From Acidobacteriota bacterium (GTDB taxonomy: Bacteria; Acidobacteriota; CAIWXX01): a DNA stretch of 64,000 bases. Below the pieces are notes generated by a model. That model made no database searches. It saw only the letters and a list, made by a program, of their open reading frames with translations, and was not told the origin of the DNA. The stretch lies in NCBI GenBank assembly GCA_040755995.1, contig JBFMAF010000031.1, forward strand, positions 64,001 through 128,000, in the 5' to 3' direction. Shown piece after piece: positions 44,775 to 64,000 of the stretch. Numbering within the stretch: position 1 is the first letter of the stretch; each line of letters opens with the position of its first letter. The position numbers and the translations under genes are program-made.

Positions 44775-45095
44775 CCCCGATCCTCCGCTATATCCTCTCA
44801 CAGTACTTCGGCCCAGATCATCCCAATCATCTTGATGCACTCTGGTCTGCGGACATGGTCCGTCAACCAGAACCAGCGACGAACACTAATTATACCGTCC
44901 GCGAAACACCCCACACAATCGGATCGCCAGAAACATCATCCGGGCGCGCCAGCGCCGATTTCGAGACAACATGCTGTCGCCGGACGATCGGCGGCGTCCG
45001 CAGGCCAGGCTGGCGCGTTTTTCTCCTTTCGGATGTCGCATGCCGGACCGAACGCCGGCAGCTCGGAGCGAATCCGAATTCCGGAAGCCGAAATT

Positions 45096-46016
45096 CTAGG
45101 TCTCTCTCACCGCCCCGAGTATCTCCCGAACGGTGCGATCGGCCTCCGTCGAAGCGACCTGGCAGGTGCCTGCGCCTCGGTGCCCGCCTCCGCCGTATCG
45201 CGCCATCAATGCGCCAACGTCGGTCTTGGAGGTTCGGTTGAAGATGTTGTGGCCGACCTGAATGGATACCTTCTCGCCGCCTTTGACGGCTGCAAGGCGG
45301 ACCGAGATGTTGGTGGCGCCTGCGCCCGGCAGCGTGTACACCAGGAATCGGTTGGCGGGGGGAATGTTCGCAACGCTTCTCAGGTCCGTGATCAGCATGT
45401 TCCCTTCAATCCTGCTCTGGCCGCCGTACACTCGTCGCGCCTCCGCATCCAGCGCCTTGTAGCGTTCCACCCGCTCTTTCACGTCCGGCATTTCGAGGAT
45501 CTCCTTGGCCGAGTGCCGGAGCAGCAGACCGGGCATCATGTCCGTCAGCTGCTTGTTGCTGATCCTATAGTTGTGCTCGAAGCCAAGCCCCGTTCTGGGG
45601 TCGACCAGAAAGACCAACAGCATTTCGGGCGACGGGCGGAGGACGTCGTCGAGCGTGAGATTGGCGCTGTCGAAGCGATCCACGACCTCAAGGAGAGGCT
45701 GGAATCGCTGGAGCTCCGGATGATCGCCCAGAAAGTAATCATAGACAAGCCGCGCGGCGCTGGGCGCCAGGCCATAACGCCCCTTGAACTGCGCCGGCTG
45801 CCTCCCCGGGGCCTCCTCGCTGCTGTGGTGGTCGAACCACATCGCACAGCCCTCCACATACGGTAGGTTGCACACAACGTCATCCGGCGTGATCGCAAAC
45901 ACGCCGTCCTGTACGTCCTTCGGATGAGCCTGGACGACGTTGTCTATGAGCCCCGCCGCTTTGAGAAGCACAGCGCACATGATCCCGTCCACATCGCCAC
46001 GAGTGACAAGCCGCAT
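45096..46016 (-). CDS. DHH-family phosphoesterase (exopolyphosphatase-like)
   Basis: RLVTR.D.DG, FDHH, GGGH..AG motifs. Confidence 0.88.
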   Translation of the reverse strand: MRLVTRGDVDGIMCAVLLKAAGLIDNVVQAHPKDVQDGVFAITPDDVVCNLPYVEGCAMWFDHHSSEEAPGRQPAQFKGRYGLAPSAARLVYDYFLGDHPELQRFQPLLEVVDRFDSANLTLDDVLRPSPEMLLVFLVDPRTGLGFEHNYRISNKQLTDMMPGLLLRHSAKEILEMPDVKERVERYKALDAEARRVYGGQSRIEGNMLITDLRSVANIPPANRFLVYTLPGAGATNISVRLAAVKGGEKVSIQVGHNIFNRTSKTDVGALMARYGGGGHRGAGTCQVASTEADRTVREILGAVRET

Positions 46017-46361
46017 GGGTACCTCCTTCTTGATTTCACGAACAGGCTGTCGCGCGCCGCAGGGCGCGCGAGATATCCCGGATCATGAGGACAGGGTAGC
46101 AACGGCGGGGGAGCAAGTCAATGCAAAATGCAAAATGGCCGGACCCCAGTGCAGGCGCTGGGCCGTGCTATCTGCGTGATGCGGCGGAATCTGCGCGATC
46201 TGCGGATTCGCGCGCTGTCACTCCCGGTTGTGCCGTCGCATTCGGCGGATGCACCAGACGAGCCGGCGAGTCCAGGTTTCTTGTGCGGCCGCCGCTTTCT
46301 GCATAGAATGTCCCGCGGTGATGAGAAGTCCGGAAGGGGTGCTTTCCAGGGGGTCTGCTGC

Positions 46362-47171
46362 ATGGCGAGAATCATCACGGTAGCGAGCCAGAAGGGCGGC
46401 GTGGGCAAGACCACCACCGCTTTGAACCTGGGGTTCAGCTTGAGTCGACTGGGCCAGCGCGTGCTGGTCGTAGACGCGGACCCGCAGGGCGGTATGGCAA
46501 TCGCCAGCAATCTGAGCAGAAGAACGTCGCTCGGCCTCGTCCAGATCATCAGGCGAACGGCATCGCCGAAGGACGTCCTGGCCTACACGCGCGACAGGCA
46601 GATGGCGGCGATCGGCACGGGACTTTCCGACCCCGATGAAGTCGTGTTCTTCGAGGACGCCGCGAGGAGCGGCGCACTTGGAGCCAAGATTCTCGTGCTC
46701 TCCGCGGGATTCGACTACGCCGTGCTGGATGCGCCGGCGGGGGTGGGGAGCATCGTCCAGGCGCTGTTGCACGTGAGCGACGGTGTCGTTCTGGTAGTCC
46801 GGTGCCAGAACATCCTGCTCAAGAGTCTTCCGGTCTTCTTGCGGCTTGTGCAGCGCGTCAGAAAGACGAGGAATCCAAAGCTCCGGATGGACGGCGCTGT
46901 CGTGACGATGTTCGACGACCGCGATCCGGCCGAGGCCCAGTTCTGCGAAGAATTCACCGGCAGTCTCCCCGAAACAGTGTTTCTGAAGACGCGAATCCGA
47001 TTCGATCCGGTCTTCGAAAGGGCGAGTGTCAAAGCGGTTCCGGTGGCAATGATGCCGGGGGCCGACGCTGCCGCTCGCTCGTACCTGGACCTCGCTTTCG
47101 AGCTTCGGGAGAGAGACATGCGACGCATGGCAGAAGGAGGAACCCATGAGCCCACTGAAGGACTCTTCTGA
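46362..47171 (+). CDS. ParA/MinD-family ATPase (orphan)
   Basis: SQKGGVGKTTT deviant Walker A, VDADPQG, LDAPAG. Confidence 0.92.
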   Translation: MARIITVASQKGGVGKTTTALNLGFSLSRLGQRVLVVDADPQGGMAIASNLSRRTSLGLVQIIRRTASPKDVLAYTRDRQMAAIGTGLSDPDEVVFFEDAARSGALGAKILVLSAGFDYAVLDAPAGVGSIVQALLHVSDGVVLVVRCQNILLKSLPVFLRLVQRVRKTRNPKLRMDGAVVTMFDDRDPAEAQFCEEFTGSLPETVFLKTRIRFDPVFERASVKAVPVAMMPGADAAARSYLDLAFELRERDMRRMAEGGTHEPTEGLF

Positions 47172-47697
47172 AATCCAGGAGGCGATCCGGCTGCTGAGGG
47201 AGATCTCGGAGGAGAGCGAGCGGTCGAGGACCGGCGCTCCGTGGGAGGCCCAGCGGCCTCCCTTTCCCGCGGCACGAGATGCTGAAGATGTCGAAATAGA
47301 AAGACGCGGGGTCGATGAGAGACACCTGGGCGAAATGGACGAAGTGCGAACCGCTGTGATGCAGCTCGCGCACGAGGGGGCGGTATTGGCGCCGGCACCG
47401 CAGGCCCCGACCTCAGATACTGTGACCAGCGAGCCCGCGCCGGAGACGCGCCAGGAAGCGCCGGCGGGTACTCCGCTGGAGGCTCCTTTCCCGGCCATTG
47501 CCGCGACCGGGTCGGCCGTCGAGCCGGTAGCTGATCGACCTGCTGCCGATGAGAAGGCAGTCGATGAGTCGCACGAGGGCGAGCCGCAGCCGCCCTGGGT
47601 CGGAATGGTTGAGGCCCGTGCTGAATCGGCAGTCCAGTCGCCTACGTGGCCAGCCTTTGAAGAGGGGCCTCCCGGCGGTACAGCCGAGGTGTATTAG
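47146..47697 (+). CDS. Acidic Pro/Ala/Glu-rich hypothetical protein overlapping parA
   Basis: GAAGGAGG RBS, 26 bp overlap with the parA end, short N-terminal helix then low complexity. Confidence 0.6.
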   Translation: MSPLKDSSEIQEAIRLLREISEESERSRTGAPWEAQRPPFPAARDAEDVEIERRGVDERHLGEMDEVRTAVMQLAHEGAVLAPAPQAPTSDTVTSEPAPETRQEAPAGTPLEAPFPAIAATGSAVEPVADRPAADEKAVDESHEGEPQPPWVGMVEARAESAVQSPTWPAFEEGPPGGTAEVY

Positions 47698-47818
47698 CAG
47701 GTATCTCAGGACCGATGGTTCGACCGCGGAGCCTCGAAGTGTGGCGCGCCGATGGTGTCAGGCGGCCGCCCGGACGGCGTACTTATGGGGGCGAGAGAAG
47801 GTGCTTGCGGAGCGTAGG

Positions 47819-48664
47819 ATGTACAAGCGTGTAATCGAAGGGGTGCGCGCGACGTTTCGGAGGCGGCATCCGATCGCCGATGGTAGAGGTACGCTGGTGT
47901 TGATCGGTGGGGCCGAAGACCGGAGTCGAAGCGGCCAGGTGATGAGCCGGCTCGTCGAGATCGCCAGGCCGAAGAGCGTCGCGGTCATTCCCACCGCCAC
48001 CTCGCAGCCGTCCGAGCTCGGGCGTGAGTATCGGAACGCGTTCGTCGACCTGGGAGTCGGCGAGGTCACGGTCCTGCAGGTCCAACACCCTGATCAGGCC
48101 GACCGCCAGGAGAATCTGCAGGCGGTCGAGGAGGCAGAGCTGATCTTCTTCACTGGCGGGAACCAGTTCAAGCTGGTCGAGGCGCTGAAGGGTACGGCGT
48201 TGCTCGACAGGGTTTTCAAGAAATACCACGAGGGTGCCACCATTGCGGGCACCAGCGCCGGCGCTGCCTCGGCCGGAGAGTTCATGATCGCCAACGGTGA
48301 CAATCACGGATTGGACAAGGGATCTGTCCGCTGCGAGAAGGGATTCGGTTTCCTGGAAAAAACCGTAGTGGACACGCACTTTGTCGAGCGCGGCCGGATT
48401 CACCGGCTGGCGCAGGTGCTGTCGAGCGGCATCGTCCGGCGAGGAATCGGACTCGCGGAGGACACAGCGGTCGTGGTTCACGCTGGAGCGTCGTTCGACG
48501 TCATCGGTGCGGGCTTCGTGACTGTGTTGAACAGCGAGGCGCTCTCGTTCTCCAACTATGATCAGGTCGGCGACCGCGAGCGACTCGCCGTCGATGGGAT
48601 CCGCGTCGGCTTCCTGCCACCAGGCGTGTCCTTCGACTTGACGGCCTGGTCGATCACATCGTGA
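47819..48664 (+). CDS. cphB: Cyanophycinase
   Basis: IGGAED, VIPTA, FTGGNQ, GTSAGA, DTHF.ERGR..RL, G.GL.EDT motifs. Confidence 0.93.
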   Translation: MYKRVIEGVRATFRRRHPIADGRGTLVLIGGAEDRSRSGQVMSRLVEIARPKSVAVIPTATSQPSELGREYRNAFVDLGVGEVTVLQVQHPDQADRQENLQAVEEAELIFFTGGNQFKLVEALKGTALLDRVFKKYHEGATIAGTSAGAASAGEFMIANGDNHGLDKGSVRCEKGFGFLEKTVVDTHFVERGRIHRLAQVLSSGIVRRGIGLAEDTAVVVHAGASFDVIGAGFVTVLNSEALSFSNYDQVGDRERLAVDGIRVGFLPPGVSFDLTAWSITS

Positions 48665-48837
48665 GACGCGGAGACGCGAGGAAATTGGGCCACGTTGGGG
48701 TCTCCGCGTCCGCTGCGAGGCCCGCCCCTTCGGCCTCGCCGCCGCTAAGACTCGGCGAGCCGCGTCAACACCCGGCCACCTCGACCCGTGGCTATCAGCC
48801 ATTCCAGCCCCTATAGTATATTTTCGATGGAGGTTGC

Positions 48838-50724
48838 ATGAGATACTACGAAATACGGAATCTTCGCTCGTTCTCCGGCCCGAACTACTACCTCGATTCA
48901 CCGGCGATAGTCTTCGACTTGGATATCGATCATGGCGGCCCCTTCGAGGCTTTGAGGGAAAGCGCCGTGGATCGCTTCCCTGTGCTCCGTTCCAGAACCA
49001 TCGAAACCCCGGCGGATCTTTTCGCGTTGACGCTGCTACAGGTCATCAGGCTCGACCTCGACCTCTTCGTCAGCAAATCCGCGGTCCACGTGATCGACGG
49101 AGCGGCCCGGATCGCAGCTGAGTACATCGATGAGGGTGTGGCCAAGGAGGCCGCGTATCTGGTCAGAGACTGGCTGTCCGCAGTCGCCGAGAAGAAGCCG
49201 TTCGACTTCGAGGGCAACATGCAAGGACTCCAGACCGATTTCGACAAGACGTTGTATGGCGGCCCGACTCTTTACTCCCTCCTCGAGGCCGCGATGAAGC
49301 GCTCGATACCGGTGCACTACCTGTTCGAAGAGAATCAGTTCCAGTGGGGATACGGCAAGAAACAGCTCCGGGGCCGATCCACCACCTTCCACACCGACGG
49401 CATCAAAGACACCGAATTCACCACCTACAAGGACATGGTCAAGGATTTCCTGCAGATGTGCGGATTCCCGACGCCCATCGGCAGGAACTGCTACTCGCTG
49501 AAGGAGGCTCTGGCGCAGGCGGAGCAGCTCGGCTTTCCGGTTGTCGTGAAGCCGGTGGCCGGGCACAAGGGGCAGGGCGTCACGACGAACGTCCGTTCGA
49601 TGGACGAGCTCCGCAGCGCCTACCAGGCCGCCGAGCAATCGGCGCGGCAGGAGAAGGGGCACAATGACGGCGTAATCGTCGAGCAACAGATCGAGGGGAC
49701 CGACCACCGCCTCCTGGCTGTGAACGGCAAGTTCCTCGCCGCCCTCCAGCGCATCCCAGCATATGTTGACGGCAACGGCCACGACACGATCGAAACGTTG
49801 ATCGAGCGCGAGAACGCGACGTCGGCCCGCGTCGACAATGCGCGATCGCCGCTTTGCAAGATCAAGACAGACGAGAATCTGATCGAGTTCCTGAAGCTAC
49901 AGCGGCTCTCGCTCCGCTCCGTGCCCAAGCCGGGCGAGCGCATCTTCCTGCGCCGCGTCGCGAATATCTCAGCCGGCGGTGTCTCGATCAACGTCACCAG
50001 CAAGGTCCACCCGAAGAACGTGAAACTCGTCGAAGACATCGCTAGCTTCTTCAACCTGACGGCTCTCGGCATCGACGTGCTCGCGGGCGACATCAGCAAG
50101 CCGTGGACCGACGGGGATTTCGGAATCATCGAGATCAACGCCGCGCCCGGCGTCTTCATGCACCTCACGCCCGCAATCGGAGACCCGCTCGACATCCCCG
50201 CGGCGATCTTGCGATCGCACTTCCCCAAAGACGGGTCCGAGCGAATACCCATCGTTACCGGCAACAGGCTCTCGCTCAATTTCAGCCAGATGCTCTTCCG
50301 TGAGCTCCGCGCGATCCGGCCGGGCATTCAATTCGCGAGCCTCACGGAAGAGGGAATCCTTTTCAACGGCGAGTTCTTCTTCAAGAACCCGGTGCACGCG
50401 CAGAACGTCAAGATCATGCTTCGCCACCCGAAGCTCGATCTGGCCCTGTTCACACATCGCCGCGACGACATACTGGATTCGGGGATGCTCCATCGGGGGG
50501 CCGATCTCGTCATCCTGGAGGCTCCTGATAAAGAAGAGGAGGTCCTGAGACGAGACCTGCTGCCGGGAGGCATCCTCGTGGAGCTTGGAGGGCCGGAGAT
50601 CGTGATCACACGTGACGGACAGGCGCTGGGCTCTCGACCAATCGCCGGCGGCGAAGACAAGGACGGCGCGCTGCTCGACGCCTTGAAGCCGGCGTTGCCC
50701 GGGCTCGTCTCCAAGTACGACTGA
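48838..50724 (+). CDS. cphA2: CphA2-like cyanophycin synthetase (ATP-grasp intact, Mur-ligase domain vestigial)
   Basis: 628 aa. YGGPT.Y.LL, VKPVAGHKGQGV, DHRLL, ANISAGG, IEINAAPG present. No GTNGKT P-loop (VTGNR) and no DYAHN. Confidence 0.82.
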   Translation: MRYYEIRNLRSFSGPNYYLDSPAIVFDLDIDHGGPFEALRESAVDRFPVLRSRTIETPADLFALTLLQVIRLDLDLFVSKSAVHVIDGAARIAAEYIDEGVAKEAAYLVRDWLSAVAEKKPFDFEGNMQGLQTDFDKTLYGGPTLYSLLEAAMKRSIPVHYLFEENQFQWGYGKKQLRGRSTTFHTDGIKDTEFTTYKDMVKDFLQMCGFPTPIGRNCYSLKEALAQAEQLGFPVVVKPVAGHKGQGVTTNVRSMDELRSAYQAAEQSARQEKGHNDGVIVEQQIEGTDHRLLAVNGKFLAALQRIPAYVDGNGHDTIETLIERENATSARVDNARSPLCKIKTDENLIEFLKLQRLSLRSVPKPGERIFLRRVANISAGGVSINVTSKVHPKNVKLVEDIASFFNLTALGIDVLAGDISKPWTDGDFGIIEINAAPGVFMHLTPAIGDPLDIPAAILRSHFPKDGSERIPIVTGNRLSLNFSQMLFRELRAIRPGIQFASLTEEGILFNGEFFFKNPVHAQNVKIMLRHPKLDLALFTHRRDDILDSGMLHRGADLVILEAPDKEEEVLRRDLLPGGILVELGGPEIVITRDGQALGSRPIAGGEDKDGALLDALKPALPGLVSKYD

Positions 50725-50754
50725 CCCGGCCTGAAGGTGAAAGGAAACGTAACT

Positions 50755-51918
50755 ATGCTGACTCTTTTCAGAGCGTGTGAGCTCTACGCGCCCGAAAGGC
50801 TGGGCATCAGAGATGTTCTGATCGGCGCCGGCCGGGTTCTCGCCGTGGATCAACACATTGCCGAGCCCAAGGACGTGGCTTGCGAGGTCATCCCTGCTGA
50901 TGGGCTGCGGATGATTCCGGGCCTCATCGATGTGCACGTGCACATCGCGGGAGCCGGAGGCGAGGGCGGGCCGTCGACACGGACTCCGGAGATGCAGCTG
51001 GGCCAGATGCTGAAGGGCGGCATCACCAGCGTGATCGGTTCGCTCGGTACCGACGGCATGACGCGCTCGGTGGAGAGCGTCCTGATGAAGGCGAAGGCGC
51101 TCCGCCAGGAGGGCGTGTCCGCGTGGATCCTCACTGGCGCCTACCAGGCGCCTACACCCACTATTCTGGGCGATGCCGGCAGGGATGTGGCCATGATCGA
51201 GGAAATAATCGGCGTGGGCGAGGTCGCCGTCTCCGACCACCGATCGTCATGTCCGACCGTGCCCGAGCTGGCGCGGATCGCGGCACACGCGCGTGTCGGC
51301 GGCATGCTCGGCGGCAAGGCCGGCCTGGTGCTCCTGCACATGGGCGACGCCCAGAAGCCATTCGACATCCTCTACCAGGTGGTGAGCTTCAGCCAGCTTT
51401 CGCTCGCGCAATTCCTGCCTACGCACTGCACCCGCAATGCGCACATCTTCCAGGAGGCCAAGGAATACGGAAAGCAGGGCTATGTAGATATCACGGCGAG
51501 CGCCTACCCCTTCTTCCCCGACGACGAGGTGAAGCCGTCGAAGGCGATCGTGGAGCTGCTCAAGGCCGGCGTGCCGCTCGACCACATCACCATGTCATCG
51601 GATGGGTGCGGGAGCCTGCCTCGATTCGACGAGAAGGGAAACGTGGTGATGCTCGTGAGCGGCGAGCCCGATTCGATCTTTCGCGAGCTTGTCGAGGCCG
51701 TTCGCCAGGACGGGCTCCCACTCGAGCTGGCCCTCAAGGTGGTCACCTCGAACCCGGCCCGCATATTCAAGCTCCCGCGCAAGGGAAGCATCGCCGCCGG
51801 CTATGATGCCGACCTCGTGCTCCTGGATAAGGAGGACCGGCCCTATCACGTCGTCGCCAACGGAGCGTTTTTCGTGAAGTACGCGGAGGTGCTCCGGAGA
51901 GGCACCTTCGAAAAGTAG
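50755..51918 (+). CDS. iadA: Isoaspartyl dipeptidase (beta-aspartyl peptidase)
   Basis: PGLID.HVHI.G.GGEGG...RTPE, LGTDG, SDHRSS, LHMGD, PTH, SSDG.GSLP.F motifs. Confidence 0.95.
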   Translation: MLTLFRACELYAPERLGIRDVLIGAGRVLAVDQHIAEPKDVACEVIPADGLRMIPGLIDVHVHIAGAGGEGGPSTRTPEMQLGQMLKGGITSVIGSLGTDGMTRSVESVLMKAKALRQEGVSAWILTGAYQAPTPTILGDAGRDVAMIEEIIGVGEVAVSDHRSSCPTVPELARIAAHARVGGMLGGKAGLVLLHMGDAQKPFDILYQVVSFSQLSLAQFLPTHCTRNAHIFQEAKEYGKQGYVDITASAYPFFPDDEVKPSKAIVELLKAGVPLDHITMSSDGCGSLPRFDEKGNVVMLVSGEPDSIFRELVEAVRQDGLPLELALKVVTSNPARIFKLPRKGSIAAGYDADLVLLDKEDRPYHVVANGAFFVKYAEVLRRGTFEK

Positions 51919-52348
51919 CCTTGAGGGTGTCTCAGCAAGTCGGGTCCTTCCTGTCCCCACGTCTCCCACGTCCGGTTGGCTGCCCATCGTGACTTGGACG
52001 TGAACGATGCGTTTGACCTCCCTCCGCTCACGTTCAGGTCGACGTGTGCATCTACGAATGCGATGTCGCCGAACTGAGGCGCCGGGCCCGGGATTGCACA
52101 ATGCCGAAGAATAGTCGAGAATTGGGTTCAGCCCATCCAGGAGGCGTATCGACGTGAACGGCGCCCGATGCCCCAGGCGACTTGAGACGACGAAGATGTT
52201 GCGCCTGAGTCAAGTTCTTGGACCGGAGCGCCGCTGCCACTCTCTACTCTCCACTCCCTGCACTCTACGCGAGGCCCGGCCGGCTCGGCCTCGCATGATA
52301 CATCGGTCCGAGGCCGCGCCTCGTCAGGGGTAAGTCATAGACCCGATC

Positions 52349-54991
52349 ATGAAAGCGTATCTCGACGATCCGATCCACCCCGGCCCGCTCCGCGTCCTCG
52401 ACATCCGCGTCATGCACGGGGCGAACTACTTCAGCGGGGGACCCGTCGTCATCATGAGGCTCGACCTCGGCGAATACGACGAGGTCTTCACGAACCAGAT
52501 CCCGGGCTTCCTCGAAAGACTCCAGGCGCTGCTCCCAACGCTTGCGGAGCACCACTGCTCGGAGGGGAAGACTCTGGGGTTCTTCTCGCGCGTGAGTGAG
52601 GGCACGCTGCTCGGACACGTCACCGAGCATGTCACGATCGAGCTCCAGACCCTGGCGGGCATGGACGTCGCCTACGGCAAGACGCGCAGCACCTCGGCGA
52701 AGGGTGTCTACAACGTCGTCTATCGTTTCTTCGACGAGGTGGCGGGTGTGGTCGCCGGCAAGGCCGCCGTGAACATGATGAACTCCATCCTGCTTGGGCG
52801 CCCGTTCGACACGGCCTCGGCGATTACTACGCTTGTAGAAATACGTGAGAAGAGGCTGCTGGGTCCCAGCACCCAGGCTATCGTCAAGGAGGCCAGGCAG
52901 CGCGGCATCCCATTCCTGCGGCTCGACGAGTACAACCTGGTGCAGCTCGGCACAGGCAGGTACCAGAAGCGCATCCGGGCCACGATCACGTCCGACACCG
53001 ACTACCTCGCCGTGGAGACGGCGGACAACAAGCGGTTGACCACCCTGATGCTGACGGAGGCCGGCATCCCCGTGCCGGAGACCGTCGTGGCCGAGCGGCT
53101 GGAGGAGGTGATCGAGTTCCAGGCAAGGCTGAAGCAGCCTCTGGTGATCAAGCCGCGCGAGCGCCACATGCGCAAGGGTGTCACCGTTCGGCTTGATTCC
53201 GACGAAGAGATATCAGAAGCCTTCGGCTGGGCCAGGCAGTTCGATGAGGCCGTTCTCGTACAGCCCTTCGTCAGCGGCAACACCTACCGCGTCCTCGTTA
53301 TCGACTACCAGATGGTCGCCGCCGCCCAGGTGACCCCCCCTGTGGTTGTAGGAGACGGGCGGCACAGAATCACGGAGCTGATCGAGATTCTCAACCGGGA
53401 GCCGGACCGGGGAGTCGGCGACAAGTCGAAGCTGACGCGAGTGGAGGTGGATGAGATCACGCAGCGGATCCTGCGCGGGCGCGGGTACAGCCTCGACACG
53501 GTCCTCCCGGCAGGCGAGACGCTGCCGTTGAAGCTTTCAGGGAGTCTGAGGAGCGGCGGAAGCGCCCGCGACGTCACCGACGAGGTCCATCCGTTTAACC
53601 GGTTCCTGGCCGAACGCGCCGCCAAGGTCATCGGCCTGAATGTCGCCGGCCTAGATATCGTCGCGCCATCTCTGAGCACGCCGATTCTCGAGAACGGCGG
53701 CGTCTGCATCGGCGCGACCGCGGCGCCCGACCTGCGGCTCCATCTCAGCCCGACTCACGGCGCGGTGCGCGCCGTGGCAGGGCCGATCGTGGATATGCTG
53801 TTTCCCGCCGGAAGCAAGACGCGCATCCCGGTCTTCTCCGTCACCGGCACCCTGGGCAAGACCACCACCGTCAACCTGCTCGCCCATTGCCTCAAGCTCG
53901 CCCGATACCACGTCGGGTTGACGTCGACCGAGGGCCTGTCTATTTCGGACAAGATGCTCATGAAGGGCGACATGACGTACCCCGAACACGTCGCCCTGGT
54001 GTTGAAGGACCCCACGATCGACTGCGCCGTCCTCGAGACGGCACGCGAAGGGATCCTGCGCCGCGGCATCGGATACGAGCTCGCCGACTTCGGCATCGTG
54101 CTGAACATGTACGAAGACCACGTCGGGAGCGATGACATCAGGTACGTCGAGGACCTTGCCTACGCGAAGTCGGTCGTGGCCGAGCAGGTGTACGACGACG
54201 GCTACGCCGTCCTCAACGCTGACAACGACCTGGTGCTGGACATGCGGGATAGGGTCAGAAGCCACCTGGCGCTCTTCTCCCGATCCTACTCCAACCGCGA
54301 CGTGCGCGAGCATGCGGACGCCGGCGGCCTCGGTGTAGTCCTCGATCGCGGCGACATCCTGGTGCTCAAGGACCGCAACACGTTGCGCGTCACCAACATT
54401 GACGAGATCCCTCTCACGCACCAGGGCAAGGCTCACCAGAACTACGACAACATCCTTGCCGCAGTCGCCGCGCTGTTCGCCTTCCAGATTCCTCTGGAGA
54501 CGATCCGCTACGGCCTGCGGACGTTCTACCCCGACCCGGCAAAGCTGCCCGGCCGGATGAACGTCATTCAGATGGGCGACTTCACGGTTCTTGTCGACTA
54601 CGCGCACAATAGGGAGAGCTACCTGGAGCTCAAGGAGTTTCTCCGGCACTTCACGCAGAAGAAGCTGGGTGTGATCGATGCTCCGGGCGACCGCAGCGAT
54701 CACGAGATCATCGGCCTGGGCGAGATCGCCGCGCGCACCTACGACGAGGTCTATGTCTACGAGGGGTTCGACAGGCGCGGCAGGCCGATCGGCGAGATCG
54801 CGGAACTGCTCAAGCATGGTCTCGTCACGGCGGGGTTCGCCGAGGACCGCATCACGACCTTCATGGAGCCGGAGGCGGCGTGGAGGAGAGCGCTGGGGCG
54901 CGGAGGCCCGGAGCGGATGGTGGTGATCCTGACGGGGCGCGCCGAGAAGACGCTCCGGGTGATCGAGGCGCACGGAGGCAATGCAAAGTGA
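52349..54991 (+). CDS. cphA: Full-length CphA paralogue with degenerate ATP-grasp site
   Basis: 880 aa. N-domain Cx19HxxEH and Mur-like TGTLGKTTT, ETAREG, EDH, DYAHN present; ATP-grasp motifs altered. Confidence 0.88.
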   Translation: MKAYLDDPIHPGPLRVLDIRVMHGANYFSGGPVVIMRLDLGEYDEVFTNQIPGFLERLQALLPTLAEHHCSEGKTLGFFSRVSEGTLLGHVTEHVTIELQTLAGMDVAYGKTRSTSAKGVYNVVYRFFDEVAGVVAGKAAVNMMNSILLGRPFDTASAITTLVEIREKRLLGPSTQAIVKEARQRGIPFLRLDEYNLVQLGTGRYQKRIRATITSDTDYLAVETADNKRLTTLMLTEAGIPVPETVVAERLEEVIEFQARLKQPLVIKPRERHMRKGVTVRLDSDEEISEAFGWARQFDEAVLVQPFVSGNTYRVLVIDYQMVAAAQVTPPVVVGDGRHRITELIEILNREPDRGVGDKSKLTRVEVDEITQRILRGRGYSLDTVLPAGETLPLKLSGSLRSGGSARDVTDEVHPFNRFLAERAAKVIGLNVAGLDIVAPSLSTPILENGGVCIGATAAPDLRLHLSPTHGAVRAVAGPIVDMLFPAGSKTRIPVFSVTGTLGKTTTVNLLAHCLKLARYHVGLTSTEGLSISDKMLMKGDMTYPEHVALVLKDPTIDCAVLETAREGILRRGIGYELADFGIVLNMYEDHVGSDDIRYVEDLAYAKSVVAEQVYDDGYAVLNADNDLVLDMRDRVRSHLALFSRSYSNRDVREHADAGGLGVVLDRGDILVLKDRNTLRVTNIDEIPLTHQGKAHQNYDNILAAVAALFAFQIPLETIRYGLRTFYPDPAKLPGRMNVIQMGDFTVLVDYAHNRESYLELKEFLRHFTQKKLGVIDAPGDRSDHEIIGLGEIAARTYDEVYVYEGFDRRGRPIGEIAELLKHGLVTAGFAEDRITTFMEPEAAWRRALGRGGPERMVVILTGRAEKTLRVIEAHGGNAK

Positions 54992-55179
54992 GAAATGCAA
55001 AAGGCGGAATGCAAGAGGAGCATTGCCCCCGGGGGCGATGTATGCACATGTCCGTGAAATAGTGGGTCACCAAACGCCAGCTTGCCAACAGAATTGTTGG
55101 TCAACTATGTTGTTGTCGGCGGCGTTGAATGCCGGCTGAGCGCGATTCTGGTCCCCGCGCAAGACCGCCGATAGTCGCG

Positions 55180-57135
55180 CTACCTTGCGTCCTCCACTCT
55201 GAAAACGCCGGTGTCGGTGGCGGCATAGACGACGTTCGGTTCGGCGCTGCTGCTGGCCAGTGCACGCACGTACCTCGAGGCGGGCCGGCCGAGTCCGCGG
55301 CTCATCGGCAGCCAGGTCTTTCCACCGTTGGTGCTCCTGTAGACGCCCTGGCCTTGCGTTCCCGCATAGAGAACGTTGCTCGCGGTGGGCGATACCAACA
55401 GACACGACACCGCACGGCCCTTCATGATGGTGTTCCAGCTTTCACCCCTATCGGTGCTCTTCCACAGTTTCTTCGAGGTCCTTCCTTCGCACGCATAGAC
55501 AGTCGAGGGCGATCCAGGGTCGAGAGCGAGGCCCCATGAGAGGTCCCACGATTCCGTCCCGACTACAAGCATACAGGTCCAGGTAGATCCTCCGTCGGTG
55601 CTTTTCGCCGCGCAGACTCCGTCTTCACGGGCGGCATAGACGGTGGTGGGCATCGCGGGATCAATCTCGATGTGCGACACGGTGCCGCCCGAGAAGGTGA
55701 CGCTGCTCTTCCAGCTATGCCCTCCGTCAATGCTCTTGAACACCTGCTCGTAGATCGACGCATACAGCGTGGTTGGCGTCTGGGGGTCAACTGCTATCAA
55801 GTCGACCGCTCTGGGCATCTGTTTCCAGGTGGCCCCGCTATCGGTGCTCTTGAAGGTCCCGCTTCCTCCGCACGCGTAGACGACGTCCGGGTCGCTGGGG
55901 TCGATCGTGATGCTTCGGAGCCGCGTGAGCTTGGAACACTTGCCGATTGAACTGTTCCAGCTTCCTCCGCCGTCTGTCGTCTTGAAGACCCCTGCCGCTG
56001 TTCCAATGTACACGACGCCGGGTCGTGAAGGGTCGACGGCTAGAGCGTCGACTTGCCATTCTTTGATGCCGGCGTTGGCGGTCGACCATGTGGTTCCACG
56101 GTCGGTACTCTGGAGGACCCCTGATATCGTCGCCGCGTAGAGTAGATCCGAGTTTGTGGGATCAGCGACGATCCGTCGCACGGAGTCAGCTGGCAAGCCG
56201 GAGATGCGAGTCCACTTTTTGCCGCTCGTTGTCGTGACGTAGGCGCCATCCTCCGTGGCCGCATACAGGATGTCGGGACTGGCCGGGTCCACTGTCAGCC
56301 GCGGGACCTGATAACTCCTTTCGTCCGGGAACTCCCCGGCGAATTCCCAACGGGCACCCGCGTTCGTGCTCTTGAACAGGCCATGTGAACACACGCCCAC
56401 GTAAACGACATCAGGATTCGAAGGCGAGATACATATCCCCCCAACGCCGTAGATACGGGCAGGGAGGCCCCGATCGGATGCGACCCAGGTCGCGCCGCCG
56501 TCCGAGGTCTTGAAAATGTTGGGGTCTCCCGTGCCCGCATAGGCCACGTCTGGATTCCGAGGGTCAATTGCAATGGTCCCGACCCAGCCATCGTTCTCGA
56601 ACGAGCGAGTCCGCGACCAGGTGGTGCCGCCATCCGTGCTCCTGACGACGCAATCCCAGCTTGTGGCGGCGTACATCGTGGAGCTGCTCGAAGGACTGAC
56701 CGCGAAGCAACTGACACGGGACTTGCCGAAATGACCTTCGGAGAGCAGCCTGTTCCAACCCCTGCCCCCGTTGGTACTCTTGTACAACGCCGCATCGTGC
56801 AGCGCGTAAACCGTCGTCGCGACCGCGGGATCGACGACCAACTGGTCGTATACGGTGCCTGCGGTCGCCGGCAGGATCCTCCACGTCGCGGCACTGTCCA
56901 CGCTCTCATAGAAGGTCCCTGCCGATGCGTACAGGATGTTCGGGCGGGAGGGAGCTATGGCGAGGTCTGTGATGTTGCCGCCGTCCGGACCTACGTCTCG
57001 CCAGGCGGGCACTTGCTGCGAGCCTGCTTGAACCTTGTTCCCAAGTACCACCAGGCTCGCGGAAAGAACGAACCGTATCGCTACGTTCCATGAGGCGCGG
57101 TTGGGAAGTCGTCTAATCACGAATTGTGCGAACAT
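55180..57135 (-). CDS. Secreted BNR/Asp-box repeat beta-propeller protein
   Basis: Many S.DGG.(T/S)W repeats, and a hydrophobic signal-like segment. Start uncertain. Confidence 0.85.
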   Translation of the reverse strand: MFAQFVIRRLPNRASWNVAIRFVLSASLVVLGNKVQAGSQQVPAWRDVGPDGGNITDLAIAPSRPNILYASAGTFYESVDSAATWRILPATAGTVYDQLVVDPAVATTVYALHDAALYKSTNGGRGWNRLLSEGHFGKSRVSCFAVSPSSSSTMYAATSWDCVVRSTDGGTTWSRTRSFENDGWVGTIAIDPRNPDVAYAGTGDPNIFKTSDGGATWVASDRGLPARIYGVGGICISPSNPDVVYVGVCSHGLFKSTNAGARWEFAGEFPDERSYQVPRLTVDPASPDILYAATEDGAYVTTTSGKKWTRISGLPADSVRRIVADPTNSDLLYAATISGVLQSTDRGTTWSTANAGIKEWQVDALAVDPSRPGVVYIGTAAGVFKTTDGGGSWNSSIGKCSKLTRLRSITIDPSDPDVVYACGGSGTFKSTDSGATWKQMPRAVDLIAVDPQTPTTLYASIYEQVFKSIDGGHSWKSSVTFSGGTVSHIEIDPAMPTTVYAAREDGVCAAKSTDGGSTWTCMLVVGTESWDLSWGLALDPGSPSTVYACEGRTSKKLWKSTDRGESWNTIMKGRAVSCLLVSPTASNVLYAGTQGQGVYRSTNGGKTWLPMSRGLGRPASRYVRALASSSAEPNVVYAATDTGVFRVEDAR

Positions 57136-59185
57136 AGATGCCGTCCTCCGTGCCGGCGTAGAGGACCGGTTGCTCAGCGTCAACGGTAATCGAATTGACC
57201 CATGTGTACGAGCCACTTGTGGGCAGGCCACGGTTGATGGGATGCCAATTCGTTCCACCGTCCAGGCTGCGCCAGACTCCGGATTCGTCTGAGGCCACGT
57301 ACATCGTGCCAGGAGCGTCAGGGTCGAACGCCACTTGGGTAAACCATCGATAAGAGTCAGTCTCCGGGAACACCATTGACCAATGGCCGTCTCCCTGCTT
57401 CCACCGCAACAACGTCCCCCCGGCTATCACAAAGAAGACGCCGGGGTTGTGGGGATCGGGTGCTATCTGTTTGAAGCCCCAAGAAGGGGCCAGAACAGGA
57501 CTGAATGGGCTCCAGCACTTCCCATCATCCTCGCTCCTCCACAGGCGGGCCTTCTCCTCATGGCCCGCATCCGTCGACACGCCGGCGTAGAAGACACCCG
57601 GGCGCCTGGGATCGAAGACGAGGGGGCGCACATCTCCTGCGCCTGGCAGGTCAGAGCTCAGAAGGTGCCAATGGTCCCCGCGGTCGAGCGACTCCAGGAG
57701 GGCTCCATCCACCATGACCAGAAGGCGCCTGGGATTGGCCGGGTCGATCGTGAACGCCTCGAACGTAACCTCGTGCCAGGGCTGAGTCGTGGCCGTCCAG
57801 CTTTTCCCTCCATCTGTGCTTCTATAGATGAGCTCTGTCGCACTTCGCGAGTACAGCGTAAGGGTGTTTTTCGGGTGCACGAGAAGCCCGCCCAGACCGT
57901 AGTAGTCAGGGTATTCTCGAAGGCCCCCGCTGGCCAGTCCCCAGGTGGACCCGCCGTCACGGCTCTTCAAGATGAGCCCGCCGACTGCGTACACTGTTCC
58001 ACCGTGCTTGGGACTGGCGACGACCTCATTCACGCCGAATGAAAGACCCTTGCCTGTAAGCTCCCAGGATCTGCCGCCGTCGGTGCTCCGAAGAATTCCG
58101 CTGCCGTCTGAAATCGCGAGTACGGTGTCGGCCGAGGCCGCGTCCACCTGCAGGTGTATCCGTCCGGTACTGGGGGCGCCCGGAATCGGGACGGCAAGCC
58201 ACGTCGCTCCGCCCCGTGTGCCGCGATAGACCTCACCGGTCACGGTTACTACATAGAGCACGTCGGGGTCTGACGGACTGACAACAACGTCGTACATTTC
58301 CACCGCGGGCAGCCCCCTGCTGAGGCGTACCCATTCTGTGCCCCCATTCGTGGTCCTGTAGAGGCCTCGATTCGTGGCAGCCCATACAGTGTCACTTCGT
58401 CGCGAATGCGCACTTAGCGCGCTGACGAGGAGACCCTGACCGCCGGCAGGCAATCCGTTGTTCACGGACACCCATTTCACACCGGCATCCGTGCTCTTGA
58501 AGACGCCGCCAGTGGTACCGACGTAGACGTTGCTCGGGCTGGCCGGATCCACCTTTATCGAGCGGGGTTCATGGTCGGCGTCGAACTCGAAGATCCGCCG
58601 CCAGTTGTCACCGCCATCGGCCGATTTCCATACCTCCGGATAGTAGTAGTCTATAGCGTACATCACGTCGTGGTTGATGGTATTGACCGAGAGTGTGCTG
58701 GCCAGGATATCCAGGTCCACCCAGGTGCGGCCGCCGTTCCGAGTCCTGCATAGCCCGGCCTCCTTCCCGTCGTTCCATGCCATGAACAGCGTCTTGCGAT
58801 CGACCGGATCCACGACGAGTTCGTATACGGAGCTCCAGTAGGTGTCCGCATCCGGCATCGCCCCATTCCAGGTCTCGCCCACCTCGGTGCTCTTGGAACC
58901 CCAATAGGAACCCTCACCCGGCACAGCGCTGTCCCAAGTCTGGCCTCCATCGGTGCTCTTGATGAGCCGATCGTAGCCTTCGACGGCCCATACCAGGCCC
59001 GGCTGGCTGGGAGACGCGGCGACGACCGCGAGACGCCCTCCCGCGTCGACCTTGGTCCATACGTTCACTCCTGCAGCGGAGCTCGAGCTGGTCGCTGCGA
59101 GCACGATCAGAACCCGCAGCACCCCAATCAGGGCTGCAGCGTGCTTCCGGCAGGATTTCCGCACTCGTGAAAACGCATCAAACAT
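57113..59185 (-). CDS. Secreted BNR/Asp-box repeat beta-propeller protein
   Basis: Many S.DGG..W repeats, signal peptide, GAGGAGG RBS. Confidence 0.88.
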   Translation of the reverse strand: MFDAFSRVRKSCRKHAAALIGVLRVLIVLAATSSSSAAGVNVWTKVDAGGRLAVVAASPSQPGLVWAVEGYDRLIKSTDGGQTWDSAVPGEGSYWGSKSTEVGETWNGAMPDADTYWSSVYELVVDPVDRKTLFMAWNDGKEAGLCRTRNGGRTWVDLDILASTLSVNTINHDVMYAIDYYYPEVWKSADGGDNWRRIFEFDADHEPRSIKVDPASPSNVYVGTTGGVFKSTDAGVKWVSVNNGLPAGGQGLLVSALSAHSRRSDTVWAATNRGLYRTTNGGTEWVRLSRGLPAVEMYDVVVSPSDPDVLYVVTVTGEVYRGTRGGATWLAVPIPGAPSTGRIHLQVDAASADTVLAISDGSGILRSTDGGRSWELTGKGLSFGVNEVVASPKHGGTVYAVGGLILKSRDGGSTWGLASGGLREYPDYYGLGGLLVHPKNTLTLYSRSATELIYRSTDGGKSWTATTQPWHEVTFEAFTIDPANPRRLLVMVDGALLESLDRGDHWHLLSSDLPGAGDVRPLVFDPRRPGVFYAGVSTDAGHEEKARLWRSEDDGKCWSPFSPVLAPSWGFKQIAPDPHNPGVFFVIAGGTLLRWKQGDGHWSMVFPETDSYRWFTQVAFDPDAPGTMYVASDESGVWRSLDGGTNWHPINRGLPTSGSYTWVNSITVDAEQPVLYAGTEDGIYVRTIRD

Positions 59186-59311
59186 CTCGTCCTCCTCTCG
59201 TTGACTCCACCAAACCGCTGCGTTGGGCTCCCGATGCGGGAGGCGGGCGCGGGGATTCGTCCGCCCATGAGCGCAGGACCAGTCCACCCACGCGCGCCTC
59301 CCTCCGCAGAA

Positions 59312-59370
59312 TCCTCAGCATGCTCAATTCCCTCCAACCTTCATACGCGCAACCTGGAGGCGAAACCGCT
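59312..59370. repeat. 59-bp imperfect repeat, copy 1 (copy 2 at 60623-60681)
   Basis: 52/59 identical by manual alignment. Each copy lies upstream of a minus-strand secreted-protein gene. Confidence 0.85.
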
Positions 59371-59412
59371 GCTCCGCAGCCGGTGAGGTCTGCGCGTGGT
59401 GACGTTCGGTGA

Positions 59413-60552: not shown

Positions 60553-60622
60553 GCCTCGCCTCCATCGCATGCCCGGCGACCTGCCAGGTCCGGTTGATCC
60601 ACGTGCTCCCCCTTCCAGAGAC

Positions 60623-60681
60623 TCCTCAGCATTCTCAACGACCTCCAACCCTCATACGCGCAACCTGGAAGGGAAACCGCT
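60623..60681. repeat. 59-bp imperfect repeat, copy 2
   Basis: Matches 59312-59370. Confidence 0.85.
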
Positions 60682-60804
60682 AATGCAAAATGAAAAAGGC
60701 AAAATGCCAAGGGGGGATCGCCCCCGGCGCGATGTCTGTTTCCTGGCTCCTGAATTCCTCTTCACACACTCTTGCCGCACTTCCGGGGTGATGGTAGTAT
60801 TTCG

Positions 60805-61723: not shown

Positions 61724-61773
61724 GGTCGGCTCCGAGAAGGCTATCGCTTTGGCCTGAGCCGTTCGCAGCCGCC

Positions 61774-64000
61774 TCAGGCTTCGAACTTCTCCTTGTACTC
61801 GTACACCACGCTGATCGCCTTGCGGACGCGGCCTGTCATGTACATCATGAGGTCTCCGGCCTCGGCCTTCTTGAGGGCCGCATCGAGCGCCTCCCATTCG
61901 TCCGGGACCTCGCTGATTCGATCAGCCGGGTACTTGACGCTCGCGAATCCGTCTCGCAGCACCTTCAGGATCTCGCCGGGCTTGCGCCCGCGAAGATCCT
62001 TGTCCTCGTAGAGGATGACCTCGTCGGCGTACTTCGCCGAGGTCAAGGCGATCTGCGTGATGTCCTCGTCGCGGCGGTCGCCGACGGCGTCGAGGATGAC
62101 AAGGCGGCGCTTGTAGTTCAGCCGCGAGATCAGGTCGAAGATGCTGGCGACGGCGAATGGGTTGTGCGCATAGTCGATCAGCACATCGAAGTCGCGGACG
62201 CGCAGGATGTTCATGCGGCCCGGCGCCTGGGATGGTGAGGGGAAAAACGAACTCAACCCGAGGCGGATCTCGTCGACCTTCACGTGGAGCGCATAGGCGG
62301 CAGCGGTGGCCGCCATGGCATTCTGGATGTTGAAACCGGCCTTCCCTTCCATGGTGATCGGGATCTCGTACGCCTTCGCCACGGGCACAACGAGATCGCC
62401 TTCGAGGATGGTGATGTAGCCGTTTTGGTAGACGACGGCAAGCCCGCCGGCTTCGACATGTTCCTTGACGGTCGGATTCTCGGGGTTCACGCTGAACCAG
62501 ACGACGTGGTCTTTGCAGCGGCTCTGCATCCACCGGCACCACTTGTCGTCGGCGTTGAGCACGGAGTAGGCGCCGGGCCGCACGACCGACGGGACGATCG
62601 ACTTGAGCTTCGCCAGGTCCTCGATTGTCTCGATATATCCGAGCCCGATGTGGTCTTCGGTGACGTTGAGGCAGATGCCGACATCCGCGGTGCCGTAGCC
62701 GAGGCCGTTGCGCAGCAGCCCGCCGCGGGCCGTCTCGAATACGGCACAATCCACGGTCGGATCCTGCAAGATCATGCGGGCCGATCGCGGGCCGCTCATG
62801 TCGCCGGCTATGATCAGCCGGTCTCGCACGTAGATGCCGTCGGTACAGGTCATGCCTACGCTCTTGCCCGTGTTTTTCATGATATGGGCGATCAGTCGCA
62901 CGGCGGTGGTCTTGCCGTTGGTACCCGTGACGCTGACGATGGGGATGTCTGAAGGAGAGCCCGGCGGGAACAGCATGTCGACGATGGGGGCGGCCACGTT
63001 GCGCGGCTTGCCTTCGGATGGGCTCAGATGCATCCGGATGCCGGGCGCGGCGTTCACCTCGATCACTGCCCCGCCGTTCTCGGTGATGGGGGTCTCCAGC
63101 GTGGGCGCGATGATGTCGATGCCGGCGATGTCGAGCCCGATGTACCTCGCCACGCGCTCCACCATGAACTTGTTCATCGAATGTACCTTGTGCGTCACGT
63201 CGATGGCGGTGCCGCCGGTGGAAAGATTCGCAGTGCGCTCCAGATAGAAAACCTCGCCCTCGCGCAGGATGGTGTCGAGCGTGCAGCCGGTCTCAAGCAA
63301 CAGGCTCTCAGTGTTCGGGGTGACCTTCAGCAACGTCATCACGTTCGAGTGCCCGTGGCCGCGCCGCGGGTTCTTGTTCTCGGCGTCGATGAGCTCCTTG
63401 ATCGTGTGCTTCCCGTCCCCGACGACGTTGGCCGGGATCCGCTGAGCGGCCGCGATGAACTTGCCGGCGATCACGAGGACGCGGTAGTCGTTGCCCACGC
63501 GCCTCTCCTCGACGACGATCTTCTTCGAAAGCTCCTTCGCACGATCAAAAGCCGCTTTGAGCTGATCCTCGTTCTTGACGCCCACGGTCACTCCCTTGCC
63601 GTGGTGACCGTCGAACGGCTTGACCACCACGGGATAGCCGATGTCGCGGGCGTCTTCCAGCGCCGACGAGAACTTGGTGGCGATCGTTCCCTTGGGCACA
63701 GGTATGCCGTTGTCCTCGAGTATCATCTTCGTCAGCCGCTTGTTCCCCGCCGTCTCGACCGCGATGAGACTCGTCTGCGAGCTCAATGTAGCCTGGATCT
63801 TCTTCTGGTACTTGCCCTCTCCAAGCTGCACCAGGTTGTAGTCGTCGAGACGAATTACGGTGATCTTGCGCCGCCGGGCCTCGTCGACAATCGCCATCGT
63901 CGACGGCCCGAGGTAGTGCTCGTCGCGAATGTTCTTGATCTCCGTGATCACGGCGTCCACGTCGATTTTTTCCTCAGGCACGCCGCGAATGATGTCCTGT
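61774..64000 (-). CDS. cphA: Cyanophycin synthetase CphA1 (5' end outside window)
   Basis: LGPST, VKPFDGHHGKGV, DYRVL, ANLSTGG, IEVNAAPG.RMH, GTNGKTT, ETARGG, EDH, DYAHN all intact. Confidence 0.95.
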   Translation of the reverse strand, partial: QDIIRGVPEEKIDVDAVITEIKNIRDEHYLGPSTMAIVDEARRRKITVIRLDDYNLVQLGEGKYQKKIQATLSSQTSLIAVETAGNKRLTKMILEDNGIPVPKGTIATKFSSALEDARDIGYPVVVKPFDGHHGKGVTVGVKNEDQLKAAFDRAKELSKKIVVEERRVGNDYRVLVIAGKFIAAAQRIPANVVGDGKHTIKELIDAENKNPRRGHGHSNVMTLLKVTPNTESLLLETGCTLDTILREGEVFYLERTANLSTGGTAIDVTHKVHSMNKFMVERVARYIGLDIAGIDIIAPTLETPITENGGAVIEVNAAPGIRMHLSPSEGKPRNVAAPIVDMLFPPGSPSDIPIVSVTGTNGKTTAVRLIAHIMKNTGKSVGMTCTDGIYVRDRLIIAGDMSGPRSARMILQDPTVDCAVFETARGGLLRNGLGYGTADVGICLNVTEDHIGLGYIETIEDLAKLKSIVPSVVRPGAYSVLNADDKWCRWMQSRCKDHVVWFSVNPENPTVKEHVEAGGLAVVYQNGYITILEGDLVVPVAKAYEIPITMEGKAGFNIQNAMAATAAAYALHVKVDEIRLGLSSFFPSPSQAPGRMNILRVRDFDVLIDYAHNPFAVASIFDLISRLNYKRRLVILDAVGDRRDEDITQIALTSAKYADEVILYEDKDLRGRKPGEILKVLRDGFASVKYPADRISEVPDEWEALDAALKKAEAGDLMMYMTGRVRKAISVVYEYKEKFEA

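Follow-up and report, generated by a model that had tools for sequence, protein, structure and literature searches.

Introduction

What is a cyanophycin synthetase for once it has lost the residues that add aspartate? The question is raised by a locus in a 64,000-nucleotide stretch of an Acidobacteriota genome assembly (G000:C31:64001-128000; hereafter the window). It holds the only three CphA-like genes of the whole assembly: two of them, encoding proteins of 628 amino acids (aa; P0001) and 880 aa (P0002), lie in one operon with the gene order cphB-cphA2-iadA-cphAx, and the third encodes an 872-aa CphA1 (P0004). The original prediction, made from the sequence alone, saw P0001 and P0002 as complementary half-active enzymes and offered three roles, namely a split or heteromeric synthetase, a side-chain ligase that may use a different amino acid, or a primer-making or regulatory subunit, each of which would divide the labour of a single enzyme.

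We have followed P0002 into its family, for which we coined the label CphAx. The family has lost its aspartate pocket and has kept the hydrolytic site of its N domain, and its members are probably dedicated endo-cyanophycinases that cut chains into primers for CphA2 and the local CphA1. Residue numbers are those of Synechocystis/Trichodesmium CphA1 unless marked P0001 or P0002.

The CphAx family

By its sequences, CphAx appears to be one clade, widespread in at least eight phyla. Our set was drawn from the best 120 of 800 matches to the ATP-grasp (G) region (minus two canonical CphA1 and one fragment), from 72 whole open reading frames (ORFs) at 79 genome loci, leaving out a canonical CphA1 (L081) and seven contig-edge ORFs, and from 13 representatives that the tree assigned to the clade. 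After filtering at <90% identity, 166 of 187 sequences remained, comprising 82 long forms with a Mur lid and 84 short forms. The controls were 79 full-length, 50%-cluster representative CphA1 from outside the clade, excluding an 18-row group resembling the Ralstonia-type pair discussed below and two long-branch sisters. In both of our trees, which are quick trees whose support values are not bootstrap values, a single branch sets CphAx apart from everything else (99-100 in FastTree with 179 rows; 100 in IQ-TREE under LG+G4 with 33 rows), and the lineage to which the window's CphA1 belongs groups with it (99 and 96, respectively).

P0002 has the three-domain architecture N-G-M, where M is the Mur-type domain. 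It scores 999 bits against TIGR02068 (cut-off 850), with which Pfam agrees, and its predicted model (predicted local distance difference test 93.6) matches 7wae with a Foldseek template-modelling score of 0.89. The 880-codon frame is intact and the branch length ordinary. Its closest relative, at 66% identity, retains both E450 and N452. Many CphAx members are annotated as 'cyanophycin synthetase', and the family exceeds the TIGR02068 cut-off.

Synthesis sites of CphAx

The motif losses originally quoted for P0002 are all present in the sequence, as are the retained P-loop, EDH, DYAHN and Cx19HxxEH. Against the copy at 61774, P0002 reads KPRERHMRKG for KPFDGHHGKG, QVTP for QRIP, GSLRSGG for ANLSTGG and IGATAAPD for IEVNAAPG. 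The aspartate pocket is lost, with V328, S399 and R401 of P0002 in place of R323, N394 and S396. Further changes in the G site are H267 to M274, E300 to Q305, N452 to T457, G456 to D461 and, at a Mg ligand, E450 to G455; K268, R314, D436 (the Mg ligand D431) and R463 of P0002 are kept. We take N452 to act within the ExN motif of the Mg-ligand region.

Across the family, a full G site with its aspartate pocket is found in 0/166 CphAx and in 70/79 controls. R323 is kept in 1/166 against 75/79, S396 in 6/166 against 73/79 and N394 in 116/166 against 75/79; the substitutions of P0002 are shared by its homologues, as the original prediction had asked to be checked. The S396 position is R or K in 141/166 members, and the mutation S396W inactivates CphA1 (PMC9427784). 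E300Q and G456D are family-wide, with D at the latter position in 96% of members; the CphA2 equivalent of G456 binds the chain's terminal carboxylate (bioRxiv 10.1101/2023.04.15.537035). R309 and D431 are kept in 164/166 and 154/166, respectively.

The loss of the EVN motif, one of those quoted for P0002, is real but lineage-specific, whereas the changes in RIP and ANLS are family-wide. E450 is kept in 134/166 CphAx (76/79 controls), N452 in 127/166 (76/79) and both in 119/166, with 15 changes of state on the tree. Close homologues with an intact EVN, which had been named as a sign of recent decay that would refute the original prediction, do exist for part of the family; the aspartate pocket is nonetheless dead family-wide, so decay in the source genome alone does not explain the gene. 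Taken together, these residues predict that P0002 would not make cyanophycin from Asp, Arg and ATP.

The Mur domain of P0002 keeps its catalytic letters (K504, T505, E563, D590, H591, R736 and H753 in P0002), but it is not fully canonical, having N497L (L502), G539Y (Y544) and G562E (E567). N497 is found in 0/166 CphAx, G562E in 82/82 long forms, and N696 in only 18/82 long forms against 78/79 controls. The M catalytic set is complete in 67/82 long and 1/84 short forms. The Mur lid is absent in 83/166 and was lost at least 11 times, lid state showing 15 changes on the tree of which at least 11 are forced. Both G and M catalytic sets are missing in 43/166 members, while the lid and E450/N452 are together lost in 40/166, of which 39 retain the N motif. 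No separate lid gene was found near the short forms in 43/43 loci, each of which has a true stop, six of them with <300 bases downstream; with these repeated losses, the notion of complementary halves is not supported as a general rule. In two operon copies (L231 and L250), directly behind cphA2, G and M are wrecked and N is intact.

Five single-member records (P0246, P0311, P0360, P0382 and P0301) are CphAx that lack most of G, or a large part of it, and retain an intact N motif; each rests on one or two contigs, and assembly error is possible.

The N site of CphAx

The Cx19HxxEH motif of P0002 consists of C70, H90, E93 and H94. Around it, H68, S71, F78, R81, G110, R113 and Y121 are also intact, and S608 and E612 from the M domain complete the groove; the E90 position is T, as in many controls (all other numbers P0002). 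The strict motif is present in 164/166 CphAx against 56/79 control CphA1. The groove residues named in PMC9262961 and those next to them are kept almost throughout: among the 166 members, E87, G99, T101, R102 and E607 in 165 each, S60, R70 and Y110 in 163 each, F67 in 162 and S603 in 137.

N is also the best conserved domain of CphAx, with mean identities for long/short forms of 0.63/0.61, compared with 0.53/0.47 for G and 0.53/0.38 for the M core. In the controls N is the lowest (0.31, against 0.43 for G and 0.42 for the M core); the controls are more diverse than CphAx, so it is the rank of the domains and not the identity values that can be compared.

The neighbouring CphA2-type putative polymerase

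Against solved structures, P0001 scores 485 bits with CphA2 7ta5 and 483 bits with 8fxh, compared with 232 bits for CphA1. It is a CphA2-type protein and a putative beta-Asp-Arg polymerase. The 'mirror image' was rightly described as having an intact ATP-grasp and no Mur motifs, but it is a CphA2 and not a novel half: its architecture is an N domain, an intact G domain and a truncated M domain, in which P-loop, lid and Mur motifs are absent. Among P0001 and 119 homologues (n=120), the position of CphA1 R458 is F (P0001 F440) in 120/120, the solved CphA2 pair having an aromatic F/Y there; P0001 R372, N376, S378 and H243 are invariant (120/120) and D345 is conserved at >=90%. The Cx19HxxEH motif occurs in 0/120.

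CphA2 polymerises beta-Asp-Arg instead of adding Asp (bioRxiv 10.1101/2023.04.15.537035), so P0001 would not make good the missing step of a G-dead CphA1 in the normal cycle. With this dipeptide pocket in the neighbour, a split or heteromeric synthetase is not supported as a general rule. A predicted complex of P0001 (138-628) and P0002 (168-640) scored 0.00 in a run without folded controls, and speaks neither for nor against an interaction. The CphA2 motifs are identical whichever form of CphAx, long or short, accompanies them.

Two further observations concern the CphA2 family. P0188 (922 aa; two cluster members) is a natural fusion of a cyanophycinase-like peptidase S51 with CphA2; a search for CphA2 fusions of 1100-3140 aa gave none at E <= 1e-60, which is weak evidence. 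Ten genomes (G043, G049, G055, G056, G058, G087, G088, G108, G115 and G118) carry two CphA2-type genes each, often of ~635 and ~675 codons.

Genomic company of CphAx

By record titles, the operon is found whole or rearranged in Acidobacteriota, Bacteroidota, Planctomycetota, Cloacimonadota, Sumerlaeota, Muiribacteriota, Bacillota and Thermodesulfobacteriota, and in many Bacteroidales its genes are scattered. In many relatives cphB is its first gene. Whole-genome searches of 79 CphAx genomes found a CphA2-type gene in 73 (plus one contig-edge piece), a cyanophycinase above the cut-off in 74, IadA in 72 and an intact CphA1 in only 6; CphA2-type matches were classed by identity and span, and 20 were checked by fetching. 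The co-occurrence that the original prediction proposed to look for is thus present.

We also scored two to three candidates per genome in a sample of 401 genomes from the window's phylum that were at least 90% complete, five of which seemingly overlap the 79. CphAx was found in 7, whole CphA2 in 7 and both in 6; in G027 CphAx is accompanied by a contig-edge piece of CphA2, and in G317 a motif-bearing CphA1 accompanies CphA2. In G009 (100% complete) the operon includes a CphAx without lid, and CphA1 is absent. Among 78 metagenome cphA2 loci, CphAx lies within the fetched flank in 17 and CphA1 in 8, and the rest, many of them short, show neither; the N motif is kept in all 24 with a visible N domain. 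Eight metagenome loci with the order cphA1-cphB-cphA2 resemble the window CphA1 (54-61% identity, four compared), with G, M and N intact, and may represent the ancestral operon.

Genomes without CphA1 contributed 66 whole-ORF loci; a working M is lacking in 50 of these and both the G and M sets in 19, and the dipeptide is therefore probably imported in such genomes.

Several side observations arose from these loci. A gene that recurs in 16/79 CphAx loci (L004, L010, L018, L020 and 12 more) resembles, by its sequence, dipeptidase PepE (alpha-aspartyl dipeptidase). The source genome has a second cyanophycinase-family gene (L093; G000:C8:186988-187941) with an apparent signal peptide, judged by eye. 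Contig C10 of G074/G121 was considered as a CphA1 in pieces and rejected; it carries the entire operon a second time, with a frameshift, instead (L123, G121:C10), perhaps an assembly or strain artefact.

The third gene and other co-resident CphA1 proteins

The copy at 61774 (P0004), originally called canonical, does have intact G and M sites and the motif letters of its N domain, a part of the protein encoded beyond the window, but has lost most of the substrate-groove residues. C, H, E, H and R70 are kept, alongside S60A, F67L, G99C, T101S, R102Y, Y110H and E607S. C99 might, at a guess, be a fourth zinc ligand. Together with seven CphA1 from other CphAx genomes (n=8), P0004 shows what appears to be decay in the reverse direction to CphAx, the synthesis sites being intact and the N groove eroded: G99C is present in 8/8, R70 is lost in 7/8, E607 in 6/8 and S60 in 6/8. 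By comparison, G99 is G in 55/56 motif-bearing controls, and a relative from a genome without detected CphAx (L081/G481; one case) keeps both G99 and E607.

In L088, L090, L091 and L121 (G004, G022, G039 and G317), a stand-alone ORF behind cphB-cphA1 matches the M part of CphA1 and nothing else of it, and Deinococcus plasmids give similar 'Mur ligase family' matches. Other partial synthetases were also seen. P0374, P0378 and P0388 are N+M forms with G deleted (cluster members named Bryobacterales and Tuwongella), and P0329, P0349, P0356, P0359 and P0370 are N-only forms with the G large loop deleted (Prosthecobacter); these partial synthetases group near N-dead G+M forms.

What CphAx may do

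The explanation that we favour, with moderate confidence, is that CphAx descends from CphA1 and has been retained for its N-domain zinc peptidase. It would bind cyanophycin, cut long chains into short primers and supply these in trans to polymerases without a working primer site, namely the operon CphA2 and, where a genome has one (few do; the source genome is among them), the groove-eroded CphA1. The G domain would add no Asp and might act as a scaffold or chain anchor, and the M core may owe its retention at least in part to S603 and E607, which line the N groove. With CphA2, CphB and IadA, CphAx could then form a cycle that stores and releases dipeptide. The N domain of CphA1 is a slow endo-cyanophycinase yielding 4-mers, and G-/M-inactivated SuCphA1 or its isolated N domain gives primer independence in trans (PMC9262961), which suggests that CphAx is a natural form of that construct. 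Among the roles originally offered, the primer-making subunit is the one that the conserved N motif and the company of CphA2 favour, and no evidence points to a different amino acid; long forms, P0002 among them, may nonetheless act as a side-chain or dipeptide ligase. The division of labour itself is real, conserved across phyla and not a recent decay.

A number of observations weigh against this explanation. The 79 genomes are mostly incomplete metagenome-assembled genomes and mutually related. All eight co-resident CphA1 keep the four motif letters C, H, E and H, and the six of them placed in the tree form one clade, so the erosion of their grooves counts as one event. The source of dipeptide is unexplained in the 73/79 genomes in which no intact CphA1 was found: neither a conserved transporter nor a conserved ligase was seen beside cphA2 in 20 loci, of which the missing transporter counts here, and the secreted-looking cyanophycinase has close matches in only ~12/79 genomes. 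The G ATP/Mg set is complete in 116/166 CphAx, P0002 not among them, and this count, like that of complete M sets in the long forms, is more than a pure scaffold might keep. Loss of H267 was set aside as a diagnostic of CphAx, H being present in only 35/79 controls and Q in many, which makes it weak evidence. Some CphA2 enzymes reportedly work without a primer. Finally, cyanophycinase co-occurs with CphAx as tightly as CphA2 does, so that cutting could serve breakdown.

That last point leads to mobilisation, in which the N site would open chains for the exo-enzyme CphB and for IadA to release Asp and Arg, priming being incidental. We think this quite unlikely: the frequency of cyanophycinase and IadA and the presence of all four genes in one operon fit it, but clusters of CphB and isoaspartyl dipeptidase exist without cphA1 (PMC10206079), all 7 CphAx genomes of the phylum sample have CphA2 (one as a contig-edge piece), and the characterised N site is slow and yields 4-mers (PMC9262961). 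Another reading is a two-enzyme de novo route, which for P0002 can coexist with priming. Here the M domain of long forms would be an active Arg ligase with priming as its second job, either making free beta-Asp-Arg for CphA2 or arginylating Asp that CphA2 has added, as in the split synthetase of the original prediction. CphA1 has been proposed to make the dipeptide, very slowly, from Asp and Arg (PMC9262961); K499, T500, E558, D/E585, H586, R731 and H748 are kept in P0002 and the 67 long forms counted above; M looks intact in 16/66 whole-ORF loci from genomes without CphA1; and D585, H586 and R561 are kept in 10, 12 and 4 of 84 short forms against 55, 74 and 58 of 82 long ones, a difference suggesting that M is under selection as long as the lid remains. 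The route is unlikely all the same, given that M fails in most of those 66 loci while the four-gene set persists across 79 genomes, and that N497, N696 and G562 are changed in long forms as described above. Asp addition by CphA2 has no support in sequence, its motifs being the same with either CphAx form. A wider scheme is possible, if doubtful: a cyanophycin pathway independent of CphA1, in which the remodelled Mur domain of long CphAx would make free beta-Asp-Arg, CphA2 would polymerise it and the N domain would prime, with lidless forms running on imported dipeptide.

It is improbable that the G domain has acquired a new ligase specificity, such as dipeptide making, which P0002 secondarily lost. 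Conserved new residues (D358-K359, K/R401 and D461 in P0002 numbering), the large retention of R309, D431, K261 and R458 and the frequent completeness of the ATP/Mg set speak for it; the 15 tree changes at E450/N452, the 19/66 loci without both G and M sets, the five records that delete much of G and keep N, and the aspartate at G456, whose CphA2 equivalent holds the chain terminus, speak against it. As for P0002 being a functionless cphA1 duplicate decaying in the source genome, its loss of E450 and N452, both kept by its closest relative, is what one would expect, yet the intact frame, the ordinary branch length, the 166 non-redundant relatives sharing its substitutions and an operon conserved across phyla make this very improbable.

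Layout of the locus

Coordinates of the features are collected in Table 1. The four operon genes have third-position G+C contents of 0.79-0.87, resembling other genes of the window. An Rfam scan of 45000-64000 gave no match, and a scan for promoters and terminators gave hits at chance level only.

Table 1. Features of the cyanophycin locus, in window coordinates
Feature	Position	Strand	Basis
cphB, intracellular cyanophycinase	47819..48664	+	TIGR02069 206 bits, cut-off 126.6; start codon inferred, longest ORF from 47549
cphA2-type putative beta-Asp-Arg polymerase, 628 aa (P0001)	48838..50724	+	best PDB matches 7ta5, 8fxh, E ~1e-144
iadA, isoaspartyl dipeptidase	50737..51918	+	TIGR01975 444 bits, cut-off 331; alternative ATG 50755
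cphAx (P0002), 880-aa CphA1-derived pseudo-synthetase, long form with Mur lid	52349..54991	+	TIGR02068 above cut-off; model; one clade
CphAx N-domain endo-cyanophycinase site, predicted intact	52550..52711	+	residues present in 162-166/166 family members each
CphAx ATP-grasp (G) site, predicted disabled	53150..53737	+	alignments; residue roles from PMC9427784
CphAx Mur-type (M) domain	53843..54988	+	residue roles from PMC9427784, PMC9262961
cphA1, 872 aa (P0004)	61774..64000, continuing to 64392 beyond the window	-	G and M sites intact, N-site groove eroded

Other genes surround the operon. On its 5' side, a 306-aa ORF without family match (45096-46016, minus strand) has a homologue near the operon in G129 (L124) too, and a ParA-like ATPase with a 183-aa ORF (46128-47697, plus strand), 5' of cphB, has no counterpart in CphAx loci. 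Between the operon and cphA1 lie two tandem BNR/Sortilin-type beta-propeller genes (55180-59287, minus strand), a 411-aa ORF without Pfam match (59413-60648) and two tandem ORFs with stand-alone TIR_2 domains (60772-61206 and 61190-61723, plus strand).

Significance

These results suggest that supplying primers can be a separate protein's task, one that arose at least twice through duplication of synthetases. They place CphA2 outside cyanobacteria and apart from CphA1, contrary to a printed statement (PMC9974463). Because CphAx passes the TIGR02068 cut-off and is often annotated as a synthetase, counts of cyanophycin producers probably include non-producers. The family offers direct tests of how synthesis by primer-less polymerases is started in vivo, and it poses the question of what supplies the dipeptide when a genome has no CphA1. 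Cyanophycin production would benefit from a free primer-maker and from a large set of new CphA2 enzymes. If the pathway independent of CphA1 is true, and lidless forms import, many anaerobic heterotrophs would store nitrogen from other cells' cyanophycin.

Comparison with known systems

CphAx resembles CphA1 (Synechocystis 7LG5/7TXV, Trichodesmium 7WAE; TIGR02068) in its N-G-M fold, in Cx19HxxEH with its groove and, in long forms, in most M catalytic residues. It differs in the family-wide loss of the aspartate pocket, in the loss of E450 in P0002 and of the lid in half of the family, and in having an N site more conserved than the synthesis sites.

P0001 aligns nearly full length with CphA2 (Gloeothece 7TA5, Stanieria 8FXH/8FXI) and, like it, has no N motif, P-loop or lid. 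StCphA2 T163, T202, R308, D362, R389, N393 and S395 correspond to P0001 T144, T183, R291, D345, R372, N376 and S378; StCphA2 D212 is E193, CphA2 H208 is I in P0001, and the omega-loop motif differs. The reported range of CphA2 is cyanobacteria possessing CphA1 (PMC9974463). Here, in contrast, it is encoded by Acidobacteriota, Bacteroidota, Planctomycetota and further groups, usually in genomes where no CphA1 was found and with CphAx as its companion, and no cyanobacterium is among the record titles of the 79 CphAx loci. We found no literature on non-cyanobacterial CphA2 or the CphAx clade, most subscription papers being outside the search.

Betaproteobacteria have a comparable pair, which we take to be the one called CphA/CphA-prime; our comparison, which the original prediction had proposed, rests on one tandem pair from Ralstonia wenshanensis (L094). 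Its 886-aa copy has an intact N motif, a deleted G large loop and a decayed M, and its 855-aa partner lacks the N motif and has G and M intact, the same split of N-only against G+M as between P0002 and P0004. In the tree the two Ralstonia copies pair with each other (99) at a distance from CphAx, which makes them a separate duplication, and the partner is of CphA1 type, not CphA2. By clade and tandem arrangement the genes of the window do not belong with this pair, with separate branches and 35% identity. Two CphA homologues have also been noted for R. eutropha (PMC11362209).

Cyanophycin utilisation loci combine cyanophycinase, isoaspartyl dipeptidase and a transporter, without cphA1 (PMC10206079). 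CphAx genomes likewise join cphB and iadA without CphA1, but add a polymerase and CphAx and, in the loci inspected, showed no conserved transporter. A further likeness is to the engineered SuCphA1 N-donor, of which CphAx looks like a natural version, although the donor is a laboratory construct and was tested with TmCphA1 and not with CphA2, the partner that CphAx would serve here.

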